Source: a virus
Virus genome (UHGV): UHGV-0141541
Reading direction: 5' to 3' (one strand)
Length of the DNA stretch: 64,000 nt
A program made the translations under genes and the position numbers. The stretch's first letter is position 1. Every line of letters starts with the position of its first letter. Positions 6,098 to 56,488 of this stretch are shown one piece after another. The notes beneath the pieces are model-generated. The model did no database searches. It had not been told where the DNA came from and saw only the letters and a program-made list of their open reading frames with translations.

Positions 6098-6123
6098 TTG
6101 AATAACCTTAGATAACCACTTAC

Positions 6124-7380
6124 CTATCGAGAACCACCAAGAATAACACGGTTTTTGACTGGATACCTACGATGTACTGGATAGCCCAATGCGTCTGCAC
6201 TATGCTCAATGCCACCTGTCTTATCCATATCTCGTGTTCCAGGCTTGTAGATGACTTTTTCCAGTGAATCAATCAAATGCTTGCACTTCGGATCGATATA
6301 CAGCCGGATATCTCCAGATGCGGACATCAGCATTCGGTTAACAGCATTAACACGATCCGCAATTGGCGGGTGCTTTTTCGAATAATCGACACGTAAGAAT
6401 CCCTTCTCTTTGAATATGTCTACGTCAGACTCCCCACGAGCATGTTGGCGATAAGCACCTGCCGGATCTGGAAATACCGTTACCTGTGATTTCCAGCGCC
6501 AGAAGCGTCTCTCAAGCTCATCACAAACTTCTGCCGTGTTAGAGGAAAAGAGCACCAATTCATCAATTGCCCATAGCTCACCATTTGGCTGAGGTTGCAA
6601 AATTACTGAAGACATCGGGTCAATGTTGAAGTCCTGCCCTACCCATATAGGCAACCGAGGGTTGAACTGAAGCGGTTTTACATGCACGTTACGATCGAAC
6701 GGGTAGTAAACGCGCCCGGACATGTTCTCAAAGCTGGCCAGGTACTCCTGAGCGAACGATTTGGGGTCCATATCGTTCTTAGCAGCTTCAATTTCCGCCG
6801 TAGGTACAAACGGAGAATCGGCAGTTACAAACTGCCAGCTCTTCCACTGTCCCTTTCTTTGCAGCTCTACGTTCTGGCCTATAGTCCACAGTTTGTGAAA
6901 TTCCGAGAAGCCTTTTGGCGTACCAATGATCAGTGCACCGCCGCGTGTCGATGAAAGAGTAGGTCGTAACACCTTGTACCAGGTGTCAGCCTTCATATCC
7001 TGAAATTCATCAAGCACTACAAAATGCAACGCTACGCCGCGCAGAGTGTCAGGCTTATCAGCACCTTTGAGGGCGATCTCCGAACCGTTCTTCAACACGA
7101 TTGTCATCGTGGTGTCGTTCTTTTTCCTAACCCACTTACGAGGCAGAACTTCCTGTAGATCGTCCCACAAAATCTGGCGAGCCATCTGGTAAGTAGGAGC
7201 GACATACCAGACCCTTTGCTTTTTTTCCTTTGCCGCCGCACGAATAATAGTGGAGATCGACAACCGGGATTTTCCCCAGCGTCGACCAGCACAAACAACT
7301 TTAAATCGATGCGGAGACTGGAAGACTTTCATCTGTCCAGAATGCAGTTGCACAAGACTGAGCGAGGACGGGATTGCCAT
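6124..7380 (-). CDS. terminase large subunit
   Basis: 418 aa; Walker A-like CAGRRWGKS, Walker B VVLDEF, C-terminal nuclease-like region; precedes portal. Confidence 0.85.
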   Translation of the reverse strand: MAIPSSLSLVQLHSGQMKVFQSPHRFKVVCAGRRWGKSRLSISTIIRAAAKEKKQRVWYVAPTYQMARQILWDDLQEVLPRKWVRKKNDTTMTIVLKNGSEIALKGADKPDTLRGVALHFVVLDEFQDMKADTWYKVLRPTLSSTRGGALIIGTPKGFSEFHKLWTIGQNVELQRKGQWKSWQFVTADSPFVPTAEIEAAKNDMDPKSFAQEYLASFENMSGRVYYPFDRNVHVKPLQFNPRLPIWVGQDFNIDPMSSVILQPQPNGELWAIDELVLFSSNTAEVCDELERRFWRWKSQVTVFPDPAGAYRQHARGESDVDIFKEKGFLRVDYSKKHPPIADRVNAVNRMLMSASGDIRLYIDPKCKHLIDSLEKVIYKPGTRDMDKTGGIEHSADALGYPVHRRYPVKNRVILGGSR

Positions 7381-8012
7381 TATTCGTCCTCCCCTTCACT
7401 TCCATCATCTGTCGCATCAAATTCGCTTAGAGCTTCTTCTTCCAACGTCTCAAGCAATTCGTCATCGATGATTTCAGGCTCGTCGTCTTCCTGACGTAAT
7501 TTCGCCACCTGGGAAGGCGTAAGCTCACCAAATACCAGGTTCGGAATTTCTTCCTCGTCATTTTCCGCATGATCCATGCCCAATGCTTTGGACGAAACTT
7601 CAAAGCATTTTGCAAGGGTATTACTGGCTCTCTGTAAGCTCTTGAGAGAATCCTCAATCGCCCCTAAAGGCTTACCCTCACGTTTGGCCGTAGTGACTTC
7701 GACCATCACCATCTGCCCCAACGCATACGCCCAGCCGTCATAACGTGTACGACGTTCTTCTATCTTTTCCGCACGGGCTTTAGCGCGAAGCTCTGCGTCA
7801 GATTTAAGAGACTCACGAACCATCTTCCCAACAGAGTCCGCGCCTTTCTCTAATCCTCGCTTTTTGAAATGTCTGGAGAGTGTTTCACGACGAATGCCGT
7901 ACTCTTCCTCCAGCTTTGAGAGTGTATATTCGCCTGACGTCCATTTGGCTTCAGCTTCGGCCCACTCCGCTGGTGTCAGGCGAGTTTTTACCTCGTCTTT
8001 TTCGACCGTCAT
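7380..8012 (-). CDS. terminase small subunit (putative)
   Basis: 210 aa, overlaps terL start by 1 nt; N-terminal helix-turn-helix-like region and very acidic C-terminus; RBS GAGGG upstream. Confidence 0.5.
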   Translation of the reverse strand: MTVEKDEVKTRLTPAEWAEAEAKWTSGEYTLSKLEEEYGIRRETLSRHFKKRGLEKGADSVGKMVRESLKSDAELRAKARAEKIEERRTRYDGWAYALGQMVMVEVTTAKREGKPLGAIEDSLKSLQRASNTLAKCFEVSSKALGMDHAENDEEEIPNLVFGELTPSQVAKLRQEDDEPEIIDDELLETLEEEALSEFDATDDGSEGEDE

Positions 8013-8124
8013 AGATCCCTCTAAAACACACAGAGCGCGTCCATGCGCTCTAAAACAACTTGTTTACTGCATCTGCTAACCAACTTGTTTTCTGGGGTGT
8101 TTAATTAGGTCTGGCATGTCTTAC

Positions 8125-15842: not shown

Positions 15843-16073
15843 ATGTTTGTTCTTATCGCTGGCGTTAACGTCCATAACGAATATTATGTTAATCGCATCG
15901 CTGGGATCGCTGGTTACGCTGGGCGCGCAGTCGAGCTTATAGATGAAACAACGCGCAAAATTGACTTATTGAGCGACCAGGAGCGAAAAAAAGCAGACGT
16001 GAACGACGCTGATATATTTTTAATGTTAAAAGCGTTTGTAGAAATGGGATTTGAAATCAGTTTACATAAATAA
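15843..16073 (+). CDS. hypothetical protein (cassette gene 3)
   Basis: 76 aa; RBS AAGGAG; AT-rich. Confidence 0.5.
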   Translation: MFVLIAGVNVHNEYYVNRIAGIAGYAGRAVELIDETTRKIDLLSDQERKKADVNDADIFLMLKAFVEMGFEISLHK

Positions 16074-16078
16074 AATCG

Positions 16079-16103
16079 AGCGCCCACTATGGGCGCTTTT
16101 TTC
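16079..16103 (+). terminator. intrinsic terminator
   Basis: GCGCCCACTATGGGCGC hairpin followed by TTTTTT. Confidence 0.6.
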
Positions 16104-16123
16104 GTTTCCAATACTTCCACCAT

Positions 16124-16149
16124 AACGCGCCATCATTGGCGCGTTTTTT
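16124..16149 (+). terminator. second tandem intrinsic terminator
   Basis: ACGCGCC-ATCATT-GGCGCGT hairpin followed by TTTTTTA. Confidence 0.6.
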
Positions 16150-16559
16150 ATTGTCTTTAGCTCACTCCAACAACATAAAAATAAGCGCCAAAATAACGCC
16201 ATAGACGCGCTTTTATATCCTTGTCAGTACATACCCATTACTTAACACATTAACGCGCTTAAAATGAGTTATATTGCGCTATAACGTATGGCTAATCATT
16301 AATTTTTATTCTTGCTATGTGATCCGCGTTTATTTGTCGGCGCGGATCGGCATTTTGTTTTGTTCCGTATCCGCTCGCGTATTATGTGCGCGTGATTTTT
16401 CACATAATCACACCACTTAATCACGTATGTGATTACGCTACGAAAGAAATCTGGATGTCTCAGGCGACGAAAGTCATCATAATTTTCCCCGCTCACCTGT
16501 CCGACAACCGCTGGTTGGATTCCACCAGCTTCCCGATGTTTTTTCTACACAAAGGCGAA

Positions 16560-16680
16560 TGCAGCCGTTTCCCGAAAAAATCCTGGCCGTTCCCCGTCGG
16601 CTCATGAATACGTTCCTCGCCGTTTCTGAAAATTTCCCTGCGGCAGCTGGTGGCTATAGAGAAAGGGCCGTTTCTGGCCC
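16560..16680. repeat. iteron-like direct repeats, consensus GCCGTTTCCCGAA (4 copies)
   Basis: copies at about 16564, 16586, 16619 and 16668 in a noncoding stretch; same family recurs at 19690-19830. Confidence 0.6.
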
Positions 16681-16689
16681 TCTTCTCAG

Positions 16690-17172
16690 TTACACGCCAT
16701 CAAGGATGTGGATGCGGTTGCTTGCGTATACATTCAGCATAAAGTTAGCGCAAAACAGTTTCCATGTATCAACGCCAGCGGTATACGTAATGTTTTTGCA
16801 TTTAATTGCATTGTTGGCGATCCGCATCCCCTGCGATACTGCTTCATCGTCGGAAAATTTGAACGACGATTGAGTTTTAATCCAGACAGAAATCTGCGTA
16901 GCGAACTCAATCAGCTTGGACTGGCAGAATCGCCCGGAGCGCACCGGAAAGACGAACGTTCCGAATCCAGAATTTACCACATACGCTTTCTCAAATACCC
17001 GCGAGTAACGACGATTGCCAATGATGTCGCGTGCAATAATGCATTTTTCTTGTGCTGACAGTTCTACCGTCTCATTGTCGCGCCATGCACCAAGTACTCG
17101 TTTTTCAATGTCAGAGAACGTTACAGCGATATTGCCATGTGCGGGTGCGTTTACAGTAGCGATAAAATTCAT
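16690..17172 (-). CDS. hypothetical protein
   Basis: 160 aa ORF preceded by the AACAAATTGTTTTCT motif at 17194-17226. Confidence 0.5.
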   Translation of the reverse strand: MNFIATVNAPAHGNIAVTFSDIEKRVLGAWRDNETVELSAQEKCIIARDIIGNRRYSRVFEKAYVVNSGFGTFVFPVRSGRFCQSKLIEFATQISVWIKTQSSFKFSDDEAVSQGMRIANNAIKCKNITYTAGVDTWKLFCANFMLNVYASNRIHILDGV

Positions 17173-17522
17173 GATTAATTCCTTATCGTAAATAACAAAT
17201 TGTTTTCTTGTTGGCGTTAATTATCGTTGTACGAATAAGGCGTCAAAGTGGAAAGTTACGGTAGCCGGACGGGAACAGGTGGGTTTGTCGGTTGCCTGGA
17301 GGTAAGAGGTTGGTGTTTTTAGCCTGCGGGAAACAAGATGGTCATTTAAGGCCACCAATGCTGATGGCCTTAATAATTATCGCCCGATTACGCTAAGGAT
17401 CTTTTCCTCAACTGATTTGTTGTTGCGACTAAACTGCCTTGCGTATCTGATGACAGAAGAGGCGTTTTGCTTTCTGACCATCTCGGCTCTTTCCTTCAGG
17501 CGTTTCTTGAAATCGCCCATAT

Positions 17523-17897
17523 TTACCACCAGGCGCAGAAGGTCAGTCTGTTATTGTGAAAGTCGTGGTTCTTAATCAGATCTTCCACAAGCTCTTTCAA
17601 CTCCCCCACATCATGCCAGTAACCTTCATCGTACTCCTGACTGCCGAAGAAAAAACCTTCCCGGGTAGGCAAGTACTCTTCGCAATTACTTTCGTTTATG
17701 TGCATCAAATGAGCTTTCAGAAGACAAATGTCATTCATCGTTAATTCTAAAAGCTCACAATTTTCGACTTCACCTACGTTGCGCTCCATCCACCCAACGA
17801 GCGCATTGAACTTACGGAAGTAAGCAACCTGCTTTCTGGATGCCTCGTTATTCAGATCGTTTTTAGGCTGTGTCTCGATATAGATATCAAGTCCCAT
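17523..17897 (-). CDS. hypothetical protein
   Basis: ORF track 17523-17939; start moved to MGLDIY (RBS AAGGAA 6 nt upstream); W/C/H-containing C-terminus. Confidence 0.5.
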   Translation of the reverse strand: MGLDIYIETQPKNDLNNEASRKQVAYFRKFNALVGWMERNVGEVENCELLELTMNDICLLKAHLMHINESNCEEYLPTREGFFFGSQEYDEGYWHDVGELKELVEDLIKNHDFHNNRLTFCAWW

Positions 17898-18014
17898 GAT
17901 GGTTTCCTTATTAAGTTGCTTCAGTGAAATCATTTTCACAAATCAGATAAGGCAGAAAACAAATTGTTATCGGGCTTAATAAAATGGCGCGGTTTACGCG
18001 CCATTCAAAGAGGA

Positions 18015-18410
18015 TTAAGCGAATACGCTTTCAGGAATTAAGGTGTCAGCAGGAATGCCGGAGGTAATGCGCAGGCCGTACTGACCAATCCAGGTAGTGT
18101 TGGTATTCAGGCTGGAGGCGAATACGGTGTTAACCATATTCATCATGGTTTCAAACACCTCTTCATCAACCTGGCGGAAGTAGTTCTCGATTTTCAGCAG
18201 CAGCGGGTCAGTTGCATCGAAAATAGACTGGTATTGAGTCGCGTACTCGCCGCCGGAGGCATCACCTTTACGCACGATCGTACTGGCCTGGACTTCGGCA
18301 CCAGTTTCGGTGTTGTACGTAACAACGGTGATTTTTGCCACATTCTTACCTTCGGCGGTTTCAGAGGCATAGTAAACATCAACTGTCAGTTTTTCGCGTT
18401 TAACGGTCAT
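18015..18410 (-). CDS. hypothetical protein
   Basis: 131 aa; RBS GGAGAG; followed by hairpin terminator AATGGCGCG-GTTTA-CGCGCCATT. Confidence 0.5.
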   Translation of the reverse strand: MTVKREKLTVDVYYASETAEGKNVAKITVVTYNTETGAEVQASTIVRKGDASGGEYATQYQSIFDATDPLLLKIENYFRQVDEEVFETMMNMVNTVFASSLNTNTTWIGQYGLRITSGIPADTLIPESVFA

Positions 18411-18474
18411 TTCACTCTCCGTAGTGTCTTAGTTATTTTTATATTTTATAGTCGTAAGTATGTACTTACAATAC

Positions 18475-18503
18475 AAAAAGCCCCGTAAGGATGGCGGGGC
18501 TGT
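18475..18503 (-). terminator. intrinsic terminator
   Basis: minus-strand hairpin GCCCCGCC-ATCCTTA-CGGGGC followed by TTTTTG, after the 18536-18850 gene. Confidence 0.55.
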
Positions 18504-18535
18504 CGTACTGTCGACTAATTACCACTTGCACATTA

Positions 18536-18850
18536 TCAGGCTATTGCCATCACTGATGCTCTCTGAATCTCTTGCTGGGCCACGCGGTTAACTTCCATCA
18601 AAGCCAGTTCGAGCTGATGTTCCGGCCACATTCTTTGAAATGCCACCCAGCCTTTTCCACGCTGGCGACGAACATTCATTACATAACGAGTAAAGGTGTT
18701 TTTATCGAAAGACACCGCTGTTTCACGGAACAGACGAATAGAGGTTCCATTGGCAACGATGTCCAGCAAAGTTAATTGAGCAACCAGCGCAGGCTTCTCT
18801 TTTCGCTTCTGGTCTTTGTCCAGACCAAGAACCAATGATTTTTTCATCAT
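18536..18850 (-). CDS. hypothetical protein
   Basis: ORF track 18536-18877; start moved to MMKKSL (RBS GGAG) because the upstream part overlaps the conserved intergenic motif. Confidence 0.5.
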   Translation of the reverse strand: MMKKSLVLGLDKDQKRKEKPALVAQLTLLDIVANGTSIRLFRETAVSFDKNTFTRYVMNVRRQRGKGWVAFQRMWPEHQLELALMEVNRVAQQEIQRASVMAIA

Positions 18851-19000
18851 AACTCCGTAAACAACTTGTTTTCTCAATGGCGTAAATAATACCAGTAAGA
18901 AAACGGCTACAAAGCATATTGATCAGGCGCATGAGCGATATGCAGGTTCTTCCCTGCGGCTACAGAGAAGTTAAGCCAGCAATGCTGGCTTTGGTTGGGT

Positions 19001-19330
19001 TTACTCGAATACCTCAAGAAACTCCTGAACGTCCCAATGCTGGACAAGATGAAGATAGACCTTAGAAATCACGTCATTCTCGCTATCGCATGTGAAGTAG
19101 TACTTCTGGCTGCGGTTGTATGTGTCCACACAAAATTCGCTCATATCCATAAAGTCAGCATCTTCACCCAGGTCGCAAATCATCAAAGCAGGTGCGTCAT
19201 CACGAGTCATCAGCTCAAGCACCCACCGCGAATTGATCAGAGTGGAAGACCAACCTTCTAACTCATAAAACTGATCAAACTCTTTTTGAGTTAATTTCTT
19301 GATTTGGTTGATGTCGATATGTGCAAACAT
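19001..19330 (-). CDS. hypothetical acidic protein
   Basis: ORF track 19001-19351; start moved to MFAHIDIN (RBS AAGGA 7 nt upstream). Confidence 0.5.
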   Translation of the reverse strand: MFAHIDINQIKKLTQKEFDQFYELEGWSSTLINSRWVLELMTRDDAPALMICDLGEDADFMDMSEFCVDTYNRSQKYYFTCDSENDVISKVYLHLVQHWDVQEFLEVFE

Positions 19331-19342
19331 AAAGCAATCCTT

Positions 19343-19375
19343 AAACAACATGTTTTCTTATTGGTGTTATTATCG
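19343..19375 (-). promoter_or_regulatory. example of recurrent dyad motif family 1 (AACAAnTTGTTTTCT-TATTGG-N-TAATTATCG)
   Basis: AAACAACATGTTTTCTTATTGGTGTTATTATCG immediately upstream of the 19330 start; near-identical copies listed in findings. Confidence 0.5.
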
Positions 19376-19689
19376 TAATAACGCACAGGCGAAAAAGGAT
19401 TTTATTCCGGTGAATGTTGTTTTGGCAGTGAGTTTTCAGGTTCAGTACCGAGTACACTTTTTACATTATTCTGATTTAGTGGCCGAAAGTGGCTGGTGGG
19501 TAGAATAATCCTCTCCCCGGAAACCTACTGAAATCGATTGTGACCCGTTGGCTGTCTGGCACAATTACGCTGTAACTGGGTATTCAGAGGGAGTCCAACG
19601 GTAAGTTAGTCCGCCTGCACGTGAGCGCCTCTCTTCTTCCCGCACATTACAGGTGGGTAGCTGCAACTCTCCCTATCGCTATACCGGTA

Positions 19690-19830
19690 CGCCGCCGTTC
19701 CTGAACCGGCATCGAGCCTTTTCCCGAAACCCACACAGGCAACTCGACCGTTTCCCTGAAAATCCCCAGCCGTTCCCCGAAGGCAACCCAGCCGTTTCTG
19801 TAGCGGGATGCAGCCTTTTCCCTGTATGGA
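19690..19830. repeat. iteron-like direct repeats, consensus RCCGTTTCCCGAA (6 copies)
   Basis: copies at about 19693, 19715, 19745, 19767, 19789 and 19811. Confidence 0.6.
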
Positions 19831-19859
19831 CCGAAGGCTAACCGTAGGGGTGTTACGGG

Positions 19860-20780
19860 GGGATAAAATCAGGAGTTGAATAAATACGAAAAAGGAGGCG
19901 ACACCCCTCCTTCCCTCCCCACTTATACATACCTGGCTTCTTCGCTATACATGTTGTGTTTTCTTCGTGTTTTATCTGTCTCAACCTCTCTATAGGCGTT
20001 AATGCTCACTCCTTCCAGAACGTTCTATACGGCGACTATTTCTGTTGGTGAATTGGGTGTGTTGTTCTCTCTGTCGGTGTATGTGGTTTCGTTCGTTTTG
20101 CGGTGGTTCTTCTATGGGGTGTTCTCGTCGTTTTGGTGATTGTTCTTCTCCGTGTATGGAGTAATGGCAGGTGGGCGATTCCTTTCGTTATTGTGTTTGA
20201 GTTGTTTGTCTGGAGTGCGTGAAGGGCTTTTGTAGTTATTCGTGTATTGGGTAATGGCGTTTCCCGTGATTGTTATGTTTCGTGTCTTTTGGGATTGAGA
20301 GAAACCTTGCGGTTACAGGCTTCGTTGGGGTTTCAGCGGTTCAGGTGTTTCTTCGCTGTTTGGGTAATGGCGTGTCGTGGGTATCGCGCGTATGAATGTT
20401 TTCGGATTGCCTGTGAAAGTTAGGTTGGTTGTCCGGTAGCCTGGGGAGAAGAGGTGGGTCTTTTCGGTAGCCTGCCATAAAGAGGTTGGTTGTTTTGGGT
20501 AATGGCATATGTGTTATTTGGTTGTTTTGTTATGCCTGAAAATAAGTTGTTTATATGGTTGTGTAACGCAACGGGAGCGATTTTGAGCGTGTGTTTTTGT
20601 TGGTAGTGTGTTGAGTCGTCTGTGGTGAAATTTGGACGCTGTGGCGCTATCTGCTGCGTAGAATTACGGGTATAAGAAGTGATGTGTGATAACGTCAATT
20701 TTTTAGACCAAATCGGGAGAAAGCGTTGATGTTTCGTTGATCTGTTATTTAGTTGTTTTCTTATTGGTATAAACAACCAT
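19860..20780. other. GT-rich noncoding tract with internal repeats (no credible ORF)
   Basis: strong G+T excess on the given strand; repeated GGGTAATGGC (about 4 copies) and a ~60-bp unit shared with 17259-17320. Confidence 0.5.
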
Positions 20781-20895
20781 AACCTATTGATATTTAATGA
20801 TGTGATTGCTGGTATGGGAGGGTAGTAGTGGCGATCAACGGGTTCTTATAGAAAAGAATCAAATTGTGACCGCCATTATCAATAAGTTGCAACCG

Positions 20896-21501
20896 TTAGT
20901 TGTTCAGATAAACATTTGGAACACGGACGTAGAACTTACTGTTACCGGTAAGTTCCAGAGTAATGTTAATGTCATTACCATTGTCTAGTGTAGCCGTCGC
21001 TCTATAGAACTTATCAGTTACCTTTTCGTCAATATTAACCTTGATGCATTTCGCCGCAGTAGAACCATTATGCTCTTTCAGAATAGTTGTCACGACAGGA
21101 CATGCGGCTTCCTCAATGACGCCATCTTCCTGTTTCGGTATTACAATGAAGAATACGTAAGCCAGCAAGGTAACGACTATAATAAATGGCAGTCTACTGC
21201 TCTTTGTTATAGTCGCACGCTTCCATAGGTAGATTGGTATGAAAACTATTCCCCATAAAATAGCAGGTGGCTCATAGCCGGATTCCGAAATCGCCATTCT
21301 GTCAGCCACTAATAATCCGATGGCAGCTAAACTTCCAATTAATACAGCATAATTTGCATACTCTTCGTTCGGAATGCCGAAGCAAATTGGAATAAAAGCT
21401 AAAATCCACGCATAAGTGTTATTCAAAGGTTTTTTTTGTTGGTTATTGGTTTCCATCACATCCATCTCATCACTTAAATTACTTGTATATATTATCAACA
21501 T
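20896..21501 (-). CDS. multi-pass membrane protein of unknown function
   Basis: 201 aa; several hydrophobic segments; lies in an AT-rich stretch; start uncertain (M1 or MDVMET). Confidence 0.5.
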   Translation of the reverse strand: MLIIYTSNLSDEMDVMETNNQQKKPLNNTYAWILAFIPICFGIPNEEYANYAVLIGSLAAIGLLVADRMAISESGYEPPAILWGIVFIPIYLWKRATITKSSRLPFIIVVTLLAYVFFIVIPKQEDGVIEEAACPVVTTILKEHNGSTAAKCIKVNIDEKVTDKFYRATATLDNGNDINITLELTGNSKFYVRVPNVYLNN

Positions 21502-21577
21502 TTAACAAACATAACCTAAACACACAGCAGATATAGCATTACAAACTCATTGTGAAAACCATTATCATAGGAAACGA

Positions 21578-21763
21578 TTAGATGAGATGGTCTAATTCAT
21601 CATCTATCATTGCTTTGACGCTGGAGTCATTCACTCCATATTTATTTATGAGCTGTTTCAGCTCTGGCGAAAACTGAAGGTAGATATCGTGGGCGTTTTT
21701 CACTGTAGGTTCAACGCCGCGCATTTCAAGCGCCTTTAGTAGATATGAGTCTTCTTTAAGCAT
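21578..21763 (-). CDS. hypothetical small protein
   Basis: 61 aa ORF, AT-rich region. Confidence 0.35.
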   Translation of the reverse strand: MLKEDSYLLKALEMRGVEPTVKNAHDIYLQFSPELKQLINKYGVNDSSVKAMIDDELDHLI

Positions 21764-21799
21764 AAATTCTCCGTTATCTAGTATGAAGCGATTGCCGGA

Positions 21800-22099
21800 T
21801 TACCATTGCCAGCACTCAAGCCCTTCAACGACCGGTGCGCCACAATCAAAATGTACAGAGTCAAAGCCTACATCAAGTACTTTCTGAATGTTCGCAATCG
21901 CGCCCTCGGATATACCGTATCGACGCAACTCATCTTTCCAGTCATCGTCCTGTAACCCGGCGTGGACAATGCAACCGTACTCAATTTGTGAAACCCAATC
22001 CAGCTCATTGCTTGCGATCATGAATCGGCAAGCATCTTCCTCTGATGTATGAGATGAGCTGATCAATGCCACCTGGTAGGCTTGGGTAATGTTCAACAT
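21800..22099 (-). CDS. hypothetical protein
   Basis: ORF track 21800-22108; start moved to MLNITQ (RBS GGAG); motif family 1 copy at 22113-22145. Confidence 0.45.
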   Translation of the reverse strand: MLNITQAYQVALISSSHTSEEDACRFMIASNELDWVSQIEYGCIVHAGLQDDDWKDELRRYGISEGAIANIQKVLDVGFDSVHFDCGAPVVEGLECWQW

Positions 22100-22210
22100 T
22101 TCAACCACTCCAAAACAAGTTGTTTTCTTATGTGGTTTATTATCTCCATCAACAAAAGGCAGAAAACAAATTGTTTTAGGTACTGTGTAAATCAGAAGGG
22201 ATTGTGTCTA

Positions 22211-22240
22211 TATGAAAATGCCCGGCGTGTTGCCGGGCAT
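22211..22240 (-). terminator. metG intrinsic terminator
   Basis: hairpin ATGCCCGGC-AACACG-CCGGGCAT followed by TTTTCAT on the minus strand, about 20 bp after the metG stop. Confidence 0.6.
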
Positions 22241-22260
22241 TGCGAAGAGAGGTTGTTTAA

Positions 22261-24294
22261 TTACTTAACCTGGTGGCCAGGTTTAGCACCAGCATCCGGG
22301 CTTAACAGGAAGATATCTTTCCCGCCGGGGCCAGCAGCCATCACCATGCCTTCAGAGATACCGAAGCGCATTTTACGCGGAGCCAGGTTAGCCACCATAA
22401 TGGTGTGACGACCAATCAGTGCCTGTGGATCTGGATAAGCGGAACGGATGCCTGAGAAGACATTACGCTTTTCACCACCGAGATCCAGCGTCAGGCGAAG
22501 CAGTTTGTCAGAACCTTCGACAAACTCCGCGTTTTCAATCAGCGCCACACGCAGGTCAACTTTGGCGAAGTCGTCAAAGGTGATGGTTTCCTGAATCGGG
22601 TCGTCAGCCAGTGGGCCAGTTACCGGTGCAGCTGTGGCTTTCACTTCTTCTTTGGATGCTTCCACCAGTGCTTCCACCTGTTTCATATCGATACGGTTAT
22701 ACAGTGCCTTGAACGGATTCACTTTATGGCCCAGCAGCGGTTGCTGGATACCATCCCAAGTCAGTTCTGTATTCAGGAATGCTTCTGCACGTTCAGTCAG
22801 TTTCGGCAGTACCGGTTTCAGGTACGTCATCAGCACGCGGAACAGGTTAATGCCCATAGAGCAAATCGCCTGCAGATCGGCATCGCGTCCTTCCTGCTTC
22901 GCCACCACCCACGGAGCCTGTTCATCGACATAGCGGTTAGCCAGATCAGCCAGCGCCATGATTTCACGAATCGCTTTACCAAATTCGCGGCTTTCCCATG
23001 CTTCACCAATCACTTCAGCGGCATCAGTAAAGGTTTTGTACAGTTGCGGGTCAGCCAGTTCGCCTGCCAGCACACCGTCAAAACGCTTATTGATAAAGCC
23101 CGCGTTACGGGACGCCAGATTCACCACTTTGTTCACGATATCGGCATTCACGCGCTGAACGAAATCCTCCAGGTTGAGATCGATATCATCAATGCGCGAA
23201 GAGAGTTTCGCAGTGTAGTAGTAACGCAGGCTGTCAGCGTCAAAATGATTCAGCCAGGTGCTGGCTTTAATAAAGGTGCCGCGAGACTTGGACATCTTCG
23301 CACCGTTCACCGTCACATAGCCATGAACAAACAGGTTGGTCGGCTTGCGGAAGTTGCTGCCTTCCAGCATGGCAGGCCAGAACAGGCTGTGGAAGTAAAC
23401 GATATCTTTACCGATGAAGTGGTACAGCTCGGCGGTGGAGTCTTTCTTCCAGTATTCGTCGAAGCTGGTAGTGTCGCCGCGTTTGTCGCACAGATTCTTG
23501 AAGGAACCCATGTAGCCAATCGGTGCGTCCAGCCAGACGTAGAAGTATTTGCCCGGTGCGTTCGGAATTTCAAAACCGAAGTAAGGTGCGTCACGGGAGA
23601 TATCCCACTGTTGCAGGCCAGATTCAAACCACTCCTGCATTTTGTTTGCCACCTGCTCCTGCAACGCACCGCTGCGGGTCCATGCCTGCAACATTTCGCT
23701 GAAAGAAGGCAGATCAAAGAAGAAGTGTTCGGAATCACGCATTACCGGTGTAGCGCCAGAAACCACTGATTTCGGCTCGATCAGTTCCGTCGGGCTGTAG
23801 GTCGCGCCGCAGACTTCACAGTTATCGCCGTATTGATCCGGCGCTTTACATTTCGGGCATGTGCCTTTTACAAAACGGTCCGGCAGGAACATGCCTTTTT
23901 CCGGGTCGTACAGCTGAGAGATGGTGCGGTTTTTAATAAAACCGTTCTCTTTCAGGCGAGTATAGATAAGCTCGGACAACTGACGGTTCTCTTCGCTGTG
24001 CGTCGAGTGATAGTTGTCATAGCTGATGTTAAAGCCTGCGAAATCAGTCTGATGTTCCTGACTCATTTCGCCAATCATCTGTTCCGGTGTGATACCAAGC
24101 TGCTGTGCTTTCAGCATGATTGGCGTACCGTGGGCATCGTCGGCACAGATGAAATTAACCTCGTGGCCGCGCATTCGCTGGTAACGAACCCAGACATCAG
24201 CCTGGATGTGCTCCAGCATATGGCCGAGGTGGATTGAGCCGTTAGCGTACGGCAGCGCGCACGTCACCAGAATTTTCTTCGCGACTTGGGTCAT
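22261..24294 (-). CDS. metG: methionine--tRNA ligase, host-type
   Basis: 677 aa starting [26 protein letters not shown] (HIGH motif), KMSKS present, C-terminal tRNA-binding domain; the 720-aa ORF-track start is an upstream extension. Confidence 0.95.
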
Positions 24295-24451
24295 AGTAGG
24301 CATTACTTCTTTGTAGTGAAAAGGGGCTTGATAGTAACAAAATGGCCTTATGTCTGCCATGTGATAACAGCATTTCTCATAAATGATTAAATGTCGTAGC
24401 TGGAGTACACTACAAGGCGACAATTGCGCAAATTAAAATAAAGGAGACGGG

Positions 24452-25552
24452 ATGAGCGAGTCCAAATCGCCGGATGCCCTGAGAGCAATGGTAGCCGGTA
24501 CGCTGGCTAATTTTCAGCACCCAACCCTGAAACACAACCTGACTACGCTTAAAGCGTTACACCATGTTGCGTTGATGGATGACACACTGCATGTCGAACT
24601 AATCATGCCTTTCGTGTGGAATAAGCCTTTTGAAGACCTGAAAGAGCAATGTAGTGGTGATCTGCTCCGTATCACTGGCGCAAAGGCTATTGACTGGAAG
24701 CTGTCGTACAACATTGCCACGCTTAAGCGCGTCAAAAACCAACCAGGCATTAATGGCGTTAAGAACATTATCGCCGTCAGCTCAGGCAAGGGCGGCGTGG
24801 GTAAATCCTCCACGGCGGTAAACCTGGCACTGGCGTTGGCTGCTGAAGGTGCGAAAGTTGGTATTTTGGATGCCGATATCTATGGTCCATCAATTCCAAC
24901 CATGCTGGGCGCGGAAAACCAACGTCCAACCTCACCTGACGGTACTCACATGGCACCTATCATGTCTCATGGCCTGGCAACCAACTCTATTGGTTATCTG
25001 GTCACCGACGACAATGCAATGGTGTGGCGTGGACCGATGGCCAGCAAGGCGCTGATGCAGATGTTGCAGGAAACTCTATGGCCTGATCTGGACTATCTCG
25101 TTCTCGATATGCCGCCGGGCACTGGTGATATTCAGTTGACGCTGGCGCAGAACATTCCTGTAACTGGTGCGGTTGTGGTAACTACGCCGCAAGACATCGC
25201 GCTGATCGATGCGAAGAAAGGCATTGTGATGTTCGAAAAAGTCGAAGTGCCGGTACTGGGTATCGTTGAAAACATGAGTGTGCATATTTGCAGTAACTGC
25301 GGTCATCACGAGCCAATTTTTGGCACCGGTGGCGCACAGAAACTGGCCGAGAAATACAACACGCAGTTGTTAGGCCAAATGCCACTTCATATCTCTCTTC
25401 GTGAAGATCTGGATAACGGAACACCAACCGTTATTAGTCGTCCAGATAGCGAATTTACAGCTATTTATCGTGACCTCGCAGATCGCGTTGCTGCCCAAAT
25501 GTATTGGCAAGGTGAAGTAATACCTGGCGAAATCGCATTCCGCGCAGTGTGA
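24452..25552 (+). CDS. apbC: iron-sulfur cluster carrier protein ApbC/Mrp, host-type
   Basis: 366 aa; deviant Walker A SSGKGGVGKSS, CxxC motif (CSNCGH); divergent from metG with 157-bp intergenic region, the arrangement I recall for E. coli. Confidence 0.93.
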   Translation: MSESKSPDALRAMVAGTLANFQHPTLKHNLTTLKALHHVALMDDTLHVELIMPFVWNKPFEDLKEQCSGDLLRITGAKAIDWKLSYNIATLKRVKNQPGINGVKNIIAVSSGKGGVGKSSTAVNLALALAAEGAKVGILDADIYGPSIPTMLGAENQRPTSPDGTHMAPIMSHGLATNSIGYLVTDDNAMVWRGPMASKALMQMLQETLWPDLDYLVLDMPPGTGDIQLTLAQNIPVTGAVVVTTPQDIALIDAKKGIVMFEKVEVPVLGIVENMSVHICSNCGHHEPIFGTGGAQKLAEKYNTQLLGQMPLHISLREDLDNGTPTVISRPDSEFTAIYRDLADRVAAQMYWQGEVIPGEIAFRAV

Positions 25553-33300: not shown

Positions 33301-33441
33301 AATTACACCATTAAATAATTTGTTTTCTGATTGGTGTAATTATCGCAAACTTGAAAAGGCATAAAAGCTGCATTCATAGGCGTTACAGCAGATTTAAGGC
33401 GTAAAAATGGGGGCTGTCGCCCCCTGTCGACTGGTGCTGTA

Positions 33442-34008: not shown

Positions 34009-34305
34009 GTGTTTTCCTTAATGCTTAAACAAGTTGTTTTCTTATTGGCTTTATTGTGATGTGGCATATAAGGGGAGCAAGCTAAACGTAAAGGTGCAAA
34101 CTCTCTATTTCGGTCAACGAAACACAAGGGCCAAATGGCCCTTGTCATTAACACTTTGCTTTACGAACTAACGGATAAGCGAAGTAGATCGCCAAACCAA
34201 TGAGGACGCCATCAGAAATGACAGACATCATCTTTCCCGTAAAATCCACCAACACCGCCATCACCAGAAGAGCAATGACGATCACAAGCCGGAATCTCTC
34301 AAGCA

Positions 34306-34731: not shown

Positions 34732-34824
34732 GTGTTTTCCTTTTGTTATTTGTCAAAACAAGTTGTTTTCTAGTTAAATAAATTGCTTACGCAAAGACGG
34801 TCAATGCATATGCACTAACAACCG

Positions 34825-44944: not shown

Positions 44945-45049
44945 GTGTTTTTCCTTTTGCTTTTTGATGTGTTTAAACAAGTTGTTATCTTATTTGTTTA
45001 AACAAGGCTTACAAATCAAAGAGAAGGTGGGGTTATACCCCACCATATG

Positions 45050-52881: not shown

Positions 52882-53081
52882 ATGTCATTTTTCTGTGATT
52901 GTTAGCCGAGGCAACGATAACTCACCAGGTGCGCCGAAGGTAGTAAATGCCTGTTTTAATTATTCACATATCCACAGGATAGATCCTAATAAAGAGATCC
53001 ATAGATAGATCCTTGTATAGATCAAATAAGATCCCCGATCGCTGTAAGCCGCGCCACGACTGGTCTGAAGCCATGTTCATG

Positions 53082-53182
53082 TATGCTGCCAGCGGTAATT
53101 GATAGTCTGTCAACGGTTCGCCGTATGCTGCCAACTGTTTTTGGTATGCTGCCAGCGGCAAATCAAGTATGCTGTCAGCGGT
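53082..53182. repeat. iterons upstream of rep (4 copies, consensus TATGCTGYCAGCGGT)
   Basis: copies at about 53082, 53123 (degenerate), 53145 and 53168. Confidence 0.75.
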
Positions 53183-53202
53183 TGAATGACAAAGGTGTCC
53201 AC

Positions 53203-54297
53203 ATGTCCACAAAAAATAAAAAAGGTAAAAATAACAAAGAAGTAGAAGATAATCTCGACAACTTTGAAGAAGGTTCCCTTGAATTGTACACAGGGGAACT
53301 TGTCCCTAATAGCAACAATACAGTCCAACCAATTGCGTTGATGCGGCTGGGGTTGTTCGTGCCCACGCTCAAGGGGACAAAATACAGCAAGCGTAACAAG
53401 CCAAATGAGATCGATGCTTCAAAGGAGCTTGTTCAGCTCGAAGTAGCCCGTTCTGAAGGCTATTCCGATATCAAGATAACCGGTCCTCGTCTCGACATGG
53501 ATCATGATTTCAAAACGTGGGTGGGCGTTGTGCGTTCGCTGGCAGAATACGGCGAACCTAACGGTCGTGTCGAGTTAAGCATCACGAAATTTGCGAAGTT
53601 TTGTGGCTATCCATCGTCACAGATCCGCAAAACACTCCGCGACCGGCTTACAAACAGTCTTTTGAAGATCATGCGTACAACTCTGTCTTTCCAGAGAACG
53701 TATGAAGAAAAGAACGTCGACGGCTCTAACAAGATCTCGCTTCTGATGGTGCACCTCATCAATAGCGTGGACTACAACGAGCAGAAAGATACGGTGGTGT
53801 TCTATGCAGAACCGAAGCTGGCCGAACTATATCGCTTTGACCATAAGGTTCTTTTGCAGTTAAAGGTTATCAATAAGCTACCACGCAAAGAAACAGCACA
53901 GGCTCTGTACACCTTCATCGAAAGTCTTCCAACCAAGCCTGCGCCGGTATCGCTTGCTCGATTGCGTGCGCGACTCAATTTGAGTAGCAGGAATGTCAGC
54001 TCGCAGAATCAGACTATACGTAACGGCTTAAAAGCTCTCCAAGATTTGGGCTATCTCGAATATAGCGAGATTAAGCGGGGGCGGTCGATCTATATCCAGA
54101 TTCACAGCCGCAATCCAAAACTCAAAGTCGCACCGCCAAAACCTGAAGACATCGAACCCAAAAAACCAGATGAGAAAGCCGGGGAAATTGATGCTAAACA
54201 GAACATTATCAACAAGATAACTGAACTTTCGCAGAATTTGACGCCTGAAAATATCAAGATGATTGAGATCCTTTCCAATAGTCTCAAACTGCTTTGA
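53203..54297 (+). CDS. iteron-binding replication initiator (RepA-like), putative
   Basis: ORF track 53083-54297; start moved to MSTKNKKGK (RBS AAGGTG) because the N-terminal extension is encoded by the iterons; flanked by iteron arrays. Confidence 0.6.
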   Translation: MSTKNKKGKNNKEVEDNLDNFEEGSLELYTGELVPNSNNTVQPIALMRLGLFVPTLKGTKYSKRNKPNEIDASKELVQLEVARSEGYSDIKITGPRLDMDHDFKTWVGVVRSLAEYGEPNGRVELSITKFAKFCGYPSSQIRKTLRDRLTNSLLKIMRTTLSFQRTYEEKNVDGSNKISLLMVHLINSVDYNEQKDTVVFYAEPKLAELYRFDHKVLLQLKVINKLPRKETAQALYTFIESLPTKPAPVSLARLRARLNLSSRNVSSQNQTIRNGLKALQDLGYLEYSEIKRGRSIYIQIHSRNPKLKVAPPKPEDIEPKKPDEKAGEIDAKQNIINKITELSQNLTPENIKMIEILSNSLKLL

Positions 54298-54298
54298 T

Positions 54299-54830
54299 AT
54301 GCTGTCAGCGGTGAAATGTATGCTATCAGCGGCTATTTTCCTGAAAAGTATGCTGTGAACGGTTAAAAGATATGCTACCAGCGGTATAGTGAGATAAACG
54401 TATGCTGTGAGCGGTTAATCATCTATCACCACTCAATGCTCTGTCATACCTCCCCAGTGGTTACTAACCTCGAAGAGTGCATTCCATAAAGGTTTGCGCT
54501 CACTAACATTCTATTGCCATTGCGCTGATTGCTTGTAGTGAAAGGCATTTATTGCCTGCTGCTCTCTGATAGAACGTATGCTGTCAGCGGTGTTTTATTG
54601 AGGAATTTTTGTTTGGATATGCTATCAGCGGTAATTAATGGTATATGTCAGACCTTCGTATGCTGCCAGCGGTAATTTTGTTCTGGTTATACCCATACCG
54701 GGACATATTATTCATGCAATGTCTTAAGTATGCTGTCAGCGGTAAAAAATCGAGTAAAGTATGCTGTGAGCGGTGAGATAGACTCTCGATATGCTATCAG
54801 CGGCAGTTGATTGTGTATGCTGTCAGCGGT
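54299..54830. repeat. iteron array downstream of rep (about 12 copies of TATGCTGYCAGCGGT)
   Basis: copies at 54299, 54319, 54349, 54371, 54401, 54577, 54617, 54658, 54729, 54760, 54789 and 54816, irregularly spaced. Confidence 0.8.
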
Positions 54831-54877
54831 GACGACTATGAAATATGACTGCGGCACGTGCCGCAGTCAGTTTGCAT

Positions 54878-55090
54878 TTAGTGTATTTTCTTCAACAGAC
54901 CCCAAAGTGTTCCGGCTTTTGTAGTCAGTTTTCCTGTTTCTGGATCGTACATACGCCATTCACGCCGCTGGTGGACGATATACCCATCTTCACGTTCCAG
55001 ACGCTCAAGAATGCCAGGCTGCTTGAAACCCTTAGCACGCCAGTATCCGGTTGTTTTCTCGATTTCCAGACCTGCCAGTGTTAATGCCAT
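54878..55090 (-). CDS. hypothetical small protein
   Basis: 70 aa; followed by perfect palindrome GACTGCGGCAC/GTGCCGCAGTC at 54848-54869. Confidence 0.4.
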   Translation of the reverse strand: MALTLAGLEIEKTTGYWRAKGFKQPGILERLEREDGYIVHQRREWRMYDPETGKLTTKAGTLWGLLKKIH

Positions 55091-56397: not shown

Positions 56398-56488
56398 GTT
56401 TTCTTATCCTTTCAAACAAATTGTTTTCTTAATAAGATAATTGCGATAAAAAAGGCGTCCAACTGGACGCCTGAACTTTTTAGGGGAG

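Follow-up and report, generated by a model that had tools for sequence, protein, structure and literature searches.

A conserved non-coding module of roughly 1.2 kb, located at positions ~19,690 to 20,885 of the 64,000-nucleotide stretch of DNA analyzed here (the window), appears to be a cis-acting DNA site rather than a gene, with that of a lytic-phase replication origin and control region as its most likely, putative role. The window represents an SSU5-like E. coli phage-plasmid, sharing 100% identity with pS2-S1K81-2 and 96% identity with phage Cyrano, and the module was compared in a 14-genome alignment and in plasmid records. Tentatively, we favor the interpretation that the module is a nucleoprotein site serving lytic replication, insulated from transcription and accompanied by a small partner locus (16,564-17,314) situated ~3 kb away.

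An earlier, sequence-only reading had drawn attention to this region as an ORF-free gap at 19,352-20,800. The PGAP annotation of the 100%-identical plasmid NZ_CP107145.1 contains no CDS between 19,330 and 20,896, and the same is true of most relatives. While the entire interval is non-coding, its left ~330 bp (19,352-19,680) represent a lineage-variable spacer outside the conserved module, in which a gene is present in the Salmonella relatives. Every sequence element listed in that reading is present at or near its given position and occurs above chance expectation. Its interpretation is partly borne out, in that the tract, being non-coding, repeat-rich and conserved, represents a functional cis element rather than a sequencing artefact or frameshifted gene. 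The otherwise variable spacer harbors a Chi site, one of 12 in the window (1.4 expected), and a Chi site occupies the equivalent position in pCAV1015-111. The features of the module, the spacer and the partner locus are listed in Table 1.

Table 1. Positions of the sequence features in and around the module; coordinates are those of the window.
Feature	Position	Strand	Details
Partner locus, part 1: three to four A iterons	16564..16640	+	Copies at 16564, 16586 and 16619; a fourth, at 16609, is degenerate
Partner locus, part 2: two tandem C units	17260..17314	+	Spacer site, with a terminator-like hairpin on one side and the gene 16690-17172 promoter on the other
Chi site GCTGGTGG	19492..19499	+	~190 bp left of the iteron array, in the otherwise variable spacer
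A iteron array	19694..19835	+	Six co-oriented copies, GCCKTTYCCC core; starts 19694, 19716, 19747, 19769, 19791, 19813
Junction block	19855..19930	-	GTTACGGGGGAT, CTTGAAT, hairpin 19889-19915 and CACTTATAC; conserved
G+T-rich tract	19930..20700	+	68-76% G+T; C+A-rich on the strand of the neighboring genes; carries the B and C repeats
Four B units	20136..20506	+	~25 bp, TTCTYCGTGTATKGRGTAATGGC; GTAATGGC cores at 20159-20168, 20249-20258, 20362-20371, 20497-20506
Three tandem C units	20405..20490	+	Bipartite, GGTWGCCKG-N8-AGGTKGGT; starts 30-31 bp apart (about three helical turns)
Composite operator palindrome	20522..20556	+	TTGTTTTG-N8-GAAAATAAGTTGTTTA; orientation opposite to the early-promoter copies
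Conserved box	20563..20589	+	GTAACGCAACGGGAGCG(N)TGAGCG; near-invariant in the alignment
Promoter-like element, leftward	20668..20698	-	TTGACG (20698-20693), 17-nt spacer, TTATAC (20675-20670)
AT-rich control block	20724..20772	-	CGTTGAT twice (20724-20730, 20735-20741); degenerate early-promoter/operator copy at 20747-20772
Palindrome/hairpin	20829..20875	.	TGGCGATCA-N29-TGACCGCCA with invariant core CTTATAGAAA (20845-20854); right boundary of the module

The left end of the module is formed by the predicted iteron cluster, which was confirmed as six GCCKTTYC-type repeats spaced 22/31/22/22/22 bp apart, a two-helical-turn spacing in keeping with tandem repeats of ~17-22 bp placed at whole helical turns. 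The GCCKTTYCCC motif has five exact matches in the window (0.29 expected), all confined to the main array and the second A cluster at 16,564-16,640, and was not found in the first 50 kb of the same plasmid or in the first 50 kb of SSU5. The A iterons are kept in all clades, pCAV included, and the two-cluster layout is retained in Cyrano, PhiR41_1, SSU5 and pMT1. The partner A cluster is located directly downstream of the terminator of the gene at 16690-17172 (- strand) and is flanked by inverted Chi sites at 16522 (-) and 16646 (+), while the partner-locus C units are also present in SSU5, pMT1 and pCAV. As the A and C repeats of the partner locus both lie in spacers beyond terminator-like hairpins, they are read as DNA sites rather than as parts of an RNA.

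The strong G+T skew noted earlier over ~900 bp is real, but the strongly skewed part is restricted to about 750 bp (~19,930-20,700). In 500-nt windows the G+T content peaks at 72.8% at position 20,101, compared to a window mean of 50.0% (sd 3.4%) and to values of at most 57% elsewhere in the 64 kb, and the proposed skew analysis returned a 1-kb GC skew of +0.356 and an AT skew of -0.317 in the tract. The skew is kept at 62-77% G+T in all clades, where the spacer sequence is only 57-68% identical, and the inter-clade substitutions in the tract fit randomization within a fixed composition. A neutral or local mutational skew is ruled out by the neighboring four-fold degenerate sites, which are 42.5% G+T on the + strand. 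The pattern of substitution and conservation thus indicates that the composition of the tract is under selection.

Embedded in this tract are the B and C repeats. The approximately four copies of GGGTAATGGC reported previously were all recovered on the + strand, and the GRGTAATGGC motif has five matches in the window (0.21 expected). Two to six exact GTAATGG cores, along with near-variants (GGAATGG, GTGATGG), are present in the SSU5-supergroup clades in constant orientation, the distances between them varying from 41 to 142 bp in the Salmonella-type clade. A ~60-bp unit, said to recur at 17259-17320, proved to be a genuine repeat in both places, with three copies in the tract and two in the partner locus, although the unit is in fact a 30-31 bp bipartite tandem (5 matches; 0 expected). 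In IMG/VR, C units were recovered from 96 stretches of SSU5-like contigs, where a tandem site is usually accompanied by a second site roughly 1.4-3.6 kb off. The repeat units are 70-80% alike and, except for the three C units, irregularly spaced, and Tandem Repeats Finder identified no near-identical, constant-period tandem repeats of the kind seen in type III RNA antitoxins or CRISPR arrays in the tract.

Hairpins, operator copies and a promoter-like element are arranged around the repeats. In the E. coli clade, a terminator scan showed that the hairpin of the junction block resembles a leftward intrinsic terminator (AAGGAGG-loop-CCUCCUU followed by a U-tract). It has a structure conservation index of 0.57 (RNAalifold; z -6.7) on the - strand only, and its - strand fold is 4-13 kcal/mol more stable than that of the + strand in 14/14 genomes, owing to G-U pairs that only the leftward RNA can form. 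A search for a comparable hairpin in pCAV found none. The palindrome at the right boundary possibly serves the upstream gene at 20896-21456 (- strand) as its 3′ hairpin; its consensus fold is -9.7 for the leftward RNA versus -5.3 for the opposite strand, and it is retained in Klebsiella clades with an oppositely transcribed right flank. In pCAV its arms differ (TCAACCTCTC/GAGAGGTTGA) while the core is the same.

The operator palindrome GAAAACAANTTGTTT has 21 matches in the window (0.09 expected), mostly located between the -10 element and the ribosome-binding site of early genes, but also inside the module. The composite operator of the module is kept in all SSU5-supergroup clades, and pCAV has an operator copy elsewhere within the tract. 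Such dispersed copies resemble the P1 C1 operators and the L5 stoperators, a likeness which is limited to the operator copies and does not extend to the tract. The presence of operator palindromes in and beside the module fits immunity control, for which Op53 and oriL of P1, a repressor-controlled lytic origin, provide a parallel. No consensus sigma-70 promoter was predicted on either strand of 19,430-21,180, and the promoter-like element fails the consensus scan because its -10 hexamer is non-canonical; both hexamers and their spacing are, however, kept in all clades, with TTGACA-N17-TTACAC in pCAV. To its right, the control block has the highest A+T content (72-76%) among the 50-nt stretches of the region. 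The early-promoter/operator copy in this block points leftward, with neither a Shine-Dalgarno sequence nor an ORF behind it, and its pCAV counterpart comprises a complete operator and a CAATAA -10 element. Inspection by eye revealed no matches to a lambda-type boxA, Tus-Ter, KOPS, G-quadruplexes, a CRP site or a T7-type primase-site array.

The architecture of the module is kept in 838 plasmid records from about eight genera of gut bacteria, a distribution which nearly matches, genus by genus, the 804 records with the neighboring core gene. It persists in the distant pCAV1015-111, where the neighboring core protein shares only 33% identity. Gene content varies among lineages on both flanks of the module and between the two repeat loci. 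In Y. pestis pMT1 the tract has been lost and the partner locus kept, showing that the tract is dispensable for plasmid maintenance. A search for distant relatives in a phage collection retrieved SSU5-like phages only, and a motif scan of IMG/VR recovered the same group only. The remnants present in large Klebsiella plasmids have been truncated by IS elements to fragments that are uninformative on function.

The suggestion that the gap is an origin needs to be divided. As an origin of the plasmid (prophage) state the tract was rejected, since a P1/RepFIB-type RepA replicon with unrelated iterons is located at ~52.9-54.9 kb. This replicon comprises DnaA boxes (52,960-52,976) and at least 17 iterons, with GTATGCTGYCAGCGG iterons at 53,081-53,189 and 54,295-54,824; the tract repeats were not found in this region, and no iterons were found in the ParA/helicase region. 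Its SSU5 counterpart is SSU5_069, with its own iterons, and the RepA iterons, unlike the A iterons, vary from lineage to lineage. A putative lytic-phase origin is the best-fitting reading of the module. With a P1/RepFIB-type replicon present, a separate repressor-controlled lytic origin is expected by analogy with repL/oriL of P1. Unlike P1, with its repL/oriL and C1 operator Op53, the phage-plasmid has no repL homologue, and the intragenic oriL of P1 differs from the non-coding and repeat-rich module. The phage encodes its own replication and recombination set, including dnaE, a DnaB-like helicase, a primase, a ligase, rnhA, a RecA-like recombinase and an SbcCD-like exonuclease. The literature on SSU5, pHCM2, Cyrano and phage-plasmids, as far as it could be searched, provides no account of the region, a lytic origin or the virion termini.

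In the reading that we tentatively favor, phage proteins would assemble on three co-oriented repeat families, namely the A iterons, B units and C units, in a region kept clear of through-transcription. In the plasmid-prophage state, replication would proceed from the separate RepA origin and the module would be silent, with the right-edge hairpin, the operator palindromes and the untranslatable C+A-rich template as the probable source of this silence. Upon induction, a conserved core protein would bind the 22-bp-spaced iterons, possibly with looping to the partner iteron/C-unit locus ~3 kb away, as between ori and crr of phage P4, and the phage replisome, comprising the DnaB-like helicase, primase, Pol III alpha and RNase HI, would then be recruited. 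De-repressed leftward transcription from the right-hand control block may furthermore open or prime the strand-asymmetric tract. Protein binding, origin function and any role of transcription or base skew are what we infer here.

Such an arrangement resembles the iteron-type origins of P4 (ori and crr), SPP1 (oriL/oriR) and lambda (ori), which, as is generally known, comprise direct repeats at helical-turn spacing, with repeat families recurring a few kilobases away. As in those systems, the module is surrounded by early genes, belongs to a temperate element with an additional plasmid lifestyle, and is apparently under immunity control. It differs from these origins, however, in having no recognized adjacent initiator gene, DnaA boxes or adjacent AT-rich unwinding element, and in having three repeat families rather than one, as well as a 750-bp strand-skewed tract. 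No DnaA box with up to one mismatch was found within 19,300-21,400, and no AT-rich unwinding element was found beside the iterons, the most AT-rich 50-mers being located 700-900 bp off (20,720-20,810 and 20,500-20,560). The neighboring small proteins have no Pfam match and belong to PHROG families of unknown function.

The main rival explanation, possible although we consider it doubtful, is that the tract represents a Rho-dependent transcription barrier or attenuator, in which the leftward transcript, being untranslated, C-rich, G-poor and unstructured, would serve as an ideal rut substrate and hence be terminated, with the junction-block hairpin as a back-up in most lineages. Such a barrier would shield the downstream early lytic genes and the iterons from a lysogeny-expressed upstream gene, and could gate early transcription if the phage has an antiterminator. 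The - strand C/G ratio amounts to 2.1-3.5 per 100 nt across 20,100-20,699 (window median: 0.91; 95th percentile: 1.57; 99th percentile: 2.44), exceeding the 95th percentile throughout ~600 nt and the 99th in 4/6 of the 100-nt windows, and the leftward RNA is well above the minimum of ~80 nt expected of a rut site for sequence that is C-rich, G-poor, unstructured and untranslated. Only 7 start codons (ATG/GTG/TTG) occur on the - strand of the 771-nt tract, versus 86 on the + strand, and the leftward RNA is almost devoid of predicted structure. The selected rather than neutral composition, and the left-end hairpin stabilized by G-U pairs unique to the leftward RNA, are further points in favor of a barrier.

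The transcription data are likewise consistent, if indirectly, with termination. Published strand-specific RNA-seq of Cyrano covers the annotated parts of the tract only, in lysogen samples of which some show partial lytic expression, and in these data the features covering 19,525-19,929 and 20,420-20,776 stay at the floor or close to it on the leftward strand, in contrast to the expressed flanking genes (PMC9928086). This silence is also in line with the favored reading of a lytic replication site. The signal falls from a log2 value of 5.6-9.2 for CYRAN_102 to the floor for CYRAN_103 directly downstream (PMC9928086). The silence persists in samples in which the late genes are partly on, the capsid gene reaching a log2 value of about 7.5 in MB6 (PMC9928086), and any activating transcript would therefore be rare or short-lived.

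In its C-rich, G-poor, unstructured and untranslated leftward sense, and in losing the RNA-seq signal precisely at its own position, the tract resembles known rut regions and attenuator leaders (lambda tR1, rho, mgtA). It is, however, 5-10 times longer than these, full of conserved repeats, paired with an iteron array and kept where no upstream gene reads in. About 100 nt of rut sequence would be enough, leaving the three conserved repeat families, the iteron array and the partner locus unaccounted for. Furthermore, Klebsiella clades with right-flank genes directed away from the module retain it even though nothing there requires insulation, and each of the downstream early genes has its own promoter/operator.

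Less likely still is a lytic-phase non-coding RNA gene, with a transcript of ~0.75-0.9 kb running from the right-hand control block to the junction-block hairpin and made after inactivation of the repressor. This unstructured A/C-rich RNA might act in trans by titrating Rho, Hfq or another single-strand RNA binder, or in cis, by priming or by forming an R-loop at the iterons next to it, as do ColE1 RNA II or T4 oriF. The layout of promoter/operator, body, hairpin and A iterons (20,772 to 19,694) is like that of the neighboring gene unit (17,246 to 16,564). Also in its favor are the early-promoter/operator element pointing into the tract, with no ORF behind it and complete in pCAV, the - strand-specific hairpin, the composition selected on the transcribed sense and the rnhA gene encoded by the phage. 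A possible promoter pointing at iterons ~0.75 kb away, a long strand asymmetry, and a phage-encoded RNase HI and T4-like replication/recombination set are points of likeness to R-loop or primer origins (ColE1 RNA II; T4 oriF/oriG) and to GC-skewed R-loop zones. However, the RNA towards the iterons would be C/A-rich rather than of the G-rich type known to favor R-loops (+ strand G content: only 32%), has no conserved RNA II-like fold, and was not seen in the lysogen RNA-seq, where the promoter-proximal 350 nt are at or near the floor, including in samples with partial lytic expression. The lack of a predicted consensus promoter, the expectation that Rho would abort such an RNA and the absence of the terminal hairpin in pCAV likewise speak against it.

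The related proposal of a long structured RNA was not upheld. Neither an Rfam E-value scan of 16,000-23,000, in which nothing in the tract was above threshold, nor ARAGORN identified a tRNA, tmRNA or known RNA family in the tract. In the RNAalifold analysis (120-nt windows, both strands, column-shuffle z-scores), structure conservation indices were 0.0-0.4 on both strands and only the two terminal hairpins stood out, the leftward RNA being C+A-rich with a folding energy near zero.

Another type of cis-acting DNA site, namely an array recognized for packaging (pac), an accessory site for partition or pairing, or an anchor for recombination, seems decidedly unlikely. Arrays of co-oriented repeats are a typical feature of small-terminase and centromere-binding sites, and two proteins with ParB-N domains and an ABC-type ATPase are encoded 8-10 kb from the tract. 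No evidence emerged for the packaging site suggested earlier; terS and terL are located at ~6,100-8,000, 12 kb away, the TerL protein is of the T4/P22 Pfam type, and the pac sites of such terminases are usually located in or near terS. The partition ParA is also encoded away from the tract, and pMT1 is stably inherited without the tract. A recombination anchor would entail G+T-rich DNA and Chi, both favored by RecA-type recombinases, promoting cassette exchange between the two repeat loci. The Chi site kept beside the iterons, the RecA-like recombinase and the gene content that varies between the loci and on both flanks are in line with this. For the recombination hotspot of the sequence-only reading, the evidence points neither way.

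Even under the favored reading of a lytic replication site, the most striking feature of the region is unaccounted for, as 750 bp of 70% G+T is not obviously needed by an origin. A bolder interpretation, to which we assign a low likelihood, is that the strand asymmetry itself is selected: through a repressor-gated, untranslatable and unfoldable C/A-rich transcription unit beside the iterons, lytic replication would be coupled at its onset to the action of Rho or to R-loop formation. In an equivalent form, the lytic origin may be licensed by the escape of one transcript from Rho. The selected base asymmetry suggests a mechanism unlike that of textbook origins, and the coupling, if true, would amount to a novel kind of origin or immunity coupling and would give the non-coding core of the SSU5 group its first function. 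Should the module instead prove to be no more than a transcription barrier, its length and elaboration would remain unusual. SSU5-like phage-plasmids, which carry resistance genes, rank with the most frequent plasmids of clinical Klebsiella, E. coli, Enterobacter and Salmonella, and the module, as persistent as core genes, represents a concrete candidate for their plasmid-to-lytic replication switch.

A decayed or mis-sequenced protein gene, or a set of genes for small hydrophobic peptides encoded by the G+T-rich strand, can be dismissed as highly improbable: stop-free frames of up to 227 amino acids (- strand) and one + strand frame open in all lineages (alignment columns 480-640) do exist, but open frames are common because the sequence is so skewed, and the 14-genome alignment contains no ORF with start, stop and frame kept across clades, the best candidate start being ATG in some genomes, TTG in the window and ACG in SSU5. 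Column variability has no three-nucleotide periodicity and most indels are not multiples of three. Some depositors have annotated ORFs here, but those of Cyrano, SSU5 and others agree neither in strand nor in position and are not conserved in the alignment, and PGAP calls none in most records. Composition and repeats are conserved where the peptide sequences are not.

The region shares 93-96% identity with Escherichia phages Cyrano, CMS-2020a and PhiR41_1 and ~70% with Salmonella phage SSU5, and E. coli plasmid pS2-S1K81-2 (NZ_CP107145.1) is 100% identical to the window, which therefore represents an SSU5-like phage-plasmid. Annotation of the identical plasmid places head and terminase genes at ~0-8 kb, followed by two ParB-N-domain proteins, an ABC-type ATPase, a DEAD-box helicase and a run of small leftward (- strand) hypothetical genes broken by the gap, beyond which lie metG, apbC, an S24 peptidase and replication genes. 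The element's own replication/recombination set includes Pol III alpha, a DnaB-like helicase, primase, ligase, RNase HI, a RecA-like recombinase and an SbcCD-like nuclease; the recombinase, nuclease and ligase are T4-like. Host-like auxiliary genes (metG for methionyl-tRNA synthetase, apbC, nrdAB, thyA, dihydrofolate reductase and rnhA) are located at ~22,261-25,550 and elsewhere.

The features described in the sequence-only reading are all real. PGAP has no CDS between 19,330 and 20,896, in agreement with the ORF-free gap; the interval had been drawn from 19,352, of which the first ~330 bp are a variable spacer harboring an extra gene in Salmonella relatives. The G+T-skewed tract is ~750 bp long rather than 900 bp, with G+T peaking at 72.8% (500-nt windows) against 50.0 ± 3.4% window-wide and exceeding 57% nowhere else, and with 1-kb GC and AT skews of +0.356 and -0.317. 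The surrounding conserved non-coding block, here the module, contains three repeat families. The iteron cluster is made up of six GCCKTTYC-type repeats (A iterons), mostly 22 bp apart; exact matches to the A core number five in the window (0.29 expected), all in this cluster or in that of a second, partner locus. The four-copy repeat was recovered as GRGTAATGGC (four copies in the tract; five matches in the window, 0.21 expected), and the supposed 60-bp unit, present at both loci, in fact comprises tandem 30-31-bp bipartite C units (GGTWGCCKG-N8-AGGTKGGT; five matches in the window, 0 expected). All copies of the A, B and C families share one orientation in all genomes examined, and the A repeats do not vary between lineages and are confined to their two clusters.

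Features of the module, partner locus and plasmid replicon, and dispersed motifs, in window coordinates
Feature	Position	Sense	Detail
Six A iterons	19,694-19,835	+	GCCKTTYC-type repeats
Conserved junction	right of A iterons		GTTACGGGGGAT, CTTGAAT, hairpin 19,889-19,915, CACTTATAC
G+T tract	~19,930-20,700	+	four ~25-bp B units (TTCTYCGTGTATKGRGTAATGGC)
Three tandem C units	20,405-20,490	+	30-31-bp bipartite
Operator palindrome, composite copy	20,522-20,556		
Box	20,563-20,589		GTAACGCAACGGGAGCG
Promoter-like element	20,698-20,670	leftward	TTGACG-N17-TTATAC
Two CGTTGAT repeats and degenerate early-promoter/operator element	20,724-20,772		most AT-rich stretch
Palindrome	20,829-20,875		TGGCGATCA...TGACCGCCA
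Partner-locus A iterons	16,564-16,640		directly past terminator of gene 16,690-17,172
Two partner-locus C units	17,260-17,314		between terminator-like hairpin and promoter of gene 16,690-17,172
Two adjacent DnaA boxes	52,960-52,976		
Five iterons	53,081-53,189		GTATGCTGYCAGCGG
rep gene	between iteron groups of ~52.9-54.9 kb region		
At least twelve more iterons	54,295-54,824		
Chi sites	5442, 8309, 12790, 16522, 16646, 19492, 25832, 39736, 41450, 46408, 47207, 54967		GCTGGTGG
Dispersed palindrome, examples	8051-8092, 17193-17207, 17955-17971, 18857-18873, 19343-19357, 22111-22178, 33313-33327, 34027-34041, 34754-34770, 44975-44989, 56414-56428		GAAAACAANTTGTTT

A distant blastn search identified the tract in 838 plasmid records (Klebsiella 430, Escherichia 224, Enterobacter 90, Salmonella 49, Citrobacter 25, Cronobacter 9 and Shigella 7), mostly with no annotated gene under the match among the matches listed. 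A neighbouring 160-aa core protein occurs in 804 records with near-identical genus counts, plus 55 Yersinia records. Alignment of the module from 14 genomes in five clades revealed a mosaic of near-invariant blocks and fast-evolving spacers, the latter 57-68% identical between clades with differences consistent with randomisation at fixed composition; G+T is 66-77% in every clade, and the gene content of both flanks varies. The order of parts is unchanged in the far more distant pCAV1015-111 (160-aa protein only 33% identical), where the tract's primary sequence has mostly changed: a palindrome around CTTATAGAAA, an early-promoter/operator element directed into the tract, TTGACA-N17-TTACAC, ~700 nt at 62-72% skew, A iterons, a Chi site and the next early gene. 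Y. pestis plasmid pMT1 (pMT-pPCP, NC_010158.1; 5,856-7,600) keeps the partner locus, with the 160-aa gene followed by two A iterons and preceded by the C pair, and carries an IS1541 element and nrdB in the tract's place.

Co-oriented, helically phased repeat families, a partner locus with its repeats in non-transcribed spacers, nearby operator palindromes, transcriptional silence and independence from the plasmid replicon point to a DNA-level nucleoprotein site. As the element also encodes its own replication/recombination set, the likeliest function, tentatively proposed, is that of a lytic-phase origin and control region. Weak points of this proposal are that there is no recognised initiator, DnaA box or adjacent AT-rich element, and that it leaves the base asymmetry unexplained. 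The closest analogues are presumably P4 ori/crr and the split of P1 into plasmid and lytic replicons. No description of the module region, lytic origin or virion ends of SSU5-group elements was found in the searchable literature. Anatomy and conservation are solid, but function is inferred; we rate the module as a cis-acting region for control or as an origin, built on repeats, whose strand asymmetry is unusual and selected.

The module was also considered as the plasmid origin and rejected. SSU5 RepA is annotated as SSU5_069, with dense CTACAGTGGWTAG iteron arrays on both sides, and the equivalent ~52.9-54.9 kb of the window is the real plasmid replicon, with a P1/RepFIB-type layout. Its iterons, which vary from lineage to lineage, bear no relation to the A repeats, and the tract is lost in pMT1; the module is therefore dispensable for plasmid replication and inheritance. 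GATC-containing repeats also occur within ~52,900-54,900, and the gene table lacks the rep gene, probably owing to this gene crossing the start point of the circular record.

The tract skew is under selection: in 32 leftward genes nearby, 4-fold degenerate sites have 42.5% G+T on the + strand, a bias opposite to the 68-73% of the tract. Over ~600 nt of the leftward sense, C/G values per 100 nt lie at 2.1-3.5 (window median 0.91; 99th percentile 2.44), and 771 nt contain just 7 start codons on this sense, compared with 86 on the opposite strand. In strand-specific RNA-seq of LF82 carrying Cyrano (S1 and S4 tables; log2(fpkm+5), floor 2.32; PMC9928086), CYRAN_103 (20,420-20,776, leftward) reached 2.3-4.3 across all ten samples and CYRAN_104 (19,525-19,929) 2.6-4.7, compared with 5.6-9.2 for the right neighbour CYRAN_102 and up to 7.8 for the left neighbour CYRAN_105; in one sample set the capsid gene reached ~7.5 and tract features at most 4.3. 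Leftward expression of the annotated tract parts is therefore essentially absent in lysogens and partly induced populations. The chief rival, that the asymmetry is itself the function as a Rho-dependent barrier, is consistent with this drop and with a leftward template that is long, untranslatable, unfoldable and C-rich, as expected of one. It is nevertheless rather unlikely, leaving unexplained both the repeats and the retention of the module where nothing reads into it. The barrier and the lytic origin are compatible with each other, and a combination of the two would be the most novel case. An unstructured lytic-phase RNA acting as sponge or primer is improbable given the RNA-seq and the weak promoters.

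The suggested long structured RNA was likewise rejected: Rfam and ARAGORN returned nothing for the tract, and RNAalifold structure conservation indices were 0.0-0.4 on both strands (120-nt windows), with leftward RNA folding at just about -9 to -16 kcal/mol per 120 nt. The exceptions are two edge hairpins. On the leftward RNA, the left one gains 4-13 kcal/mol of stability in 14/14 genomes, owing to its reliance on G-U pairs; it forms a canonical intrinsic terminator within the E. coli clade and is absent from pCAV; the right one has an invariant core, with different arms in pCAV. A packaging, partition or recombination-anchor role has little specific support and is distinctly improbable. That the tract is coding is highly improbable, since none of the open frames has its start, stop and phase conserved from clade to clade (among + strand candidates, the best begins with ATG in some genomes, TTG in the window and ACG in SSU5), 3-nt periodicity in column variability was not found in the tract alignment, and the many stop-free frames result from the skew.

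Directly right of the module lies gene 20,896-21,456 (- strand), a homologue of CYRAN_102, which belongs to the small set of Cyrano genes with expression during lysogeny and is classed as a 'moron' in PMC9928086. Its sole Pfam match is weak and sub-threshold, to a bacterial PH domain, and other clades have unrelated genes in its place, in some cases a GIY-YIG nuclease. Another non-coding stretch, ~600 bp long (16,080-16,690), marks the convergence of rightward and leftward gene blocks, with two rightward intrinsic terminators (about 16,078-16,105 and 16,126-16,150), several palindromes and only sub-threshold Rfam matches; its right end holds the left A-iteron cluster.

Twelve Chi sites occur in the window (1.4 expected), six per strand. 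An inverted pair (16522, - strand; 16646, + strand) brackets the left iteron cluster, and the site at 19492 has a counterpart in the same relative place in pCAV1015-111. The palindrome GAAAACAANTTGTTT has 21 matches window-wide (up to one mismatch; 0.09 expected), usually inside CCAATAAGAAAACAANTTGTTTA, with a GATAAT-like -10 on one side and the ribosome-binding site of a leftward early gene on the other. The element's master repressor probably uses it as its operator, with copies scattered like the C1 operators of P1. The large multi-replicon plasmid K. michiganensis p2 (NZ_CP102105.1; 2,217-3,146) carries, between transposase genes, an IS-truncated remnant of the tract in its Klebsiella form (930 bp; 96% identity to pKPHS1). 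Partial matches likewise occur in other large Klebsiella plasmids, and these remnants are traces of cointegration between phage-plasmids and plasmids.
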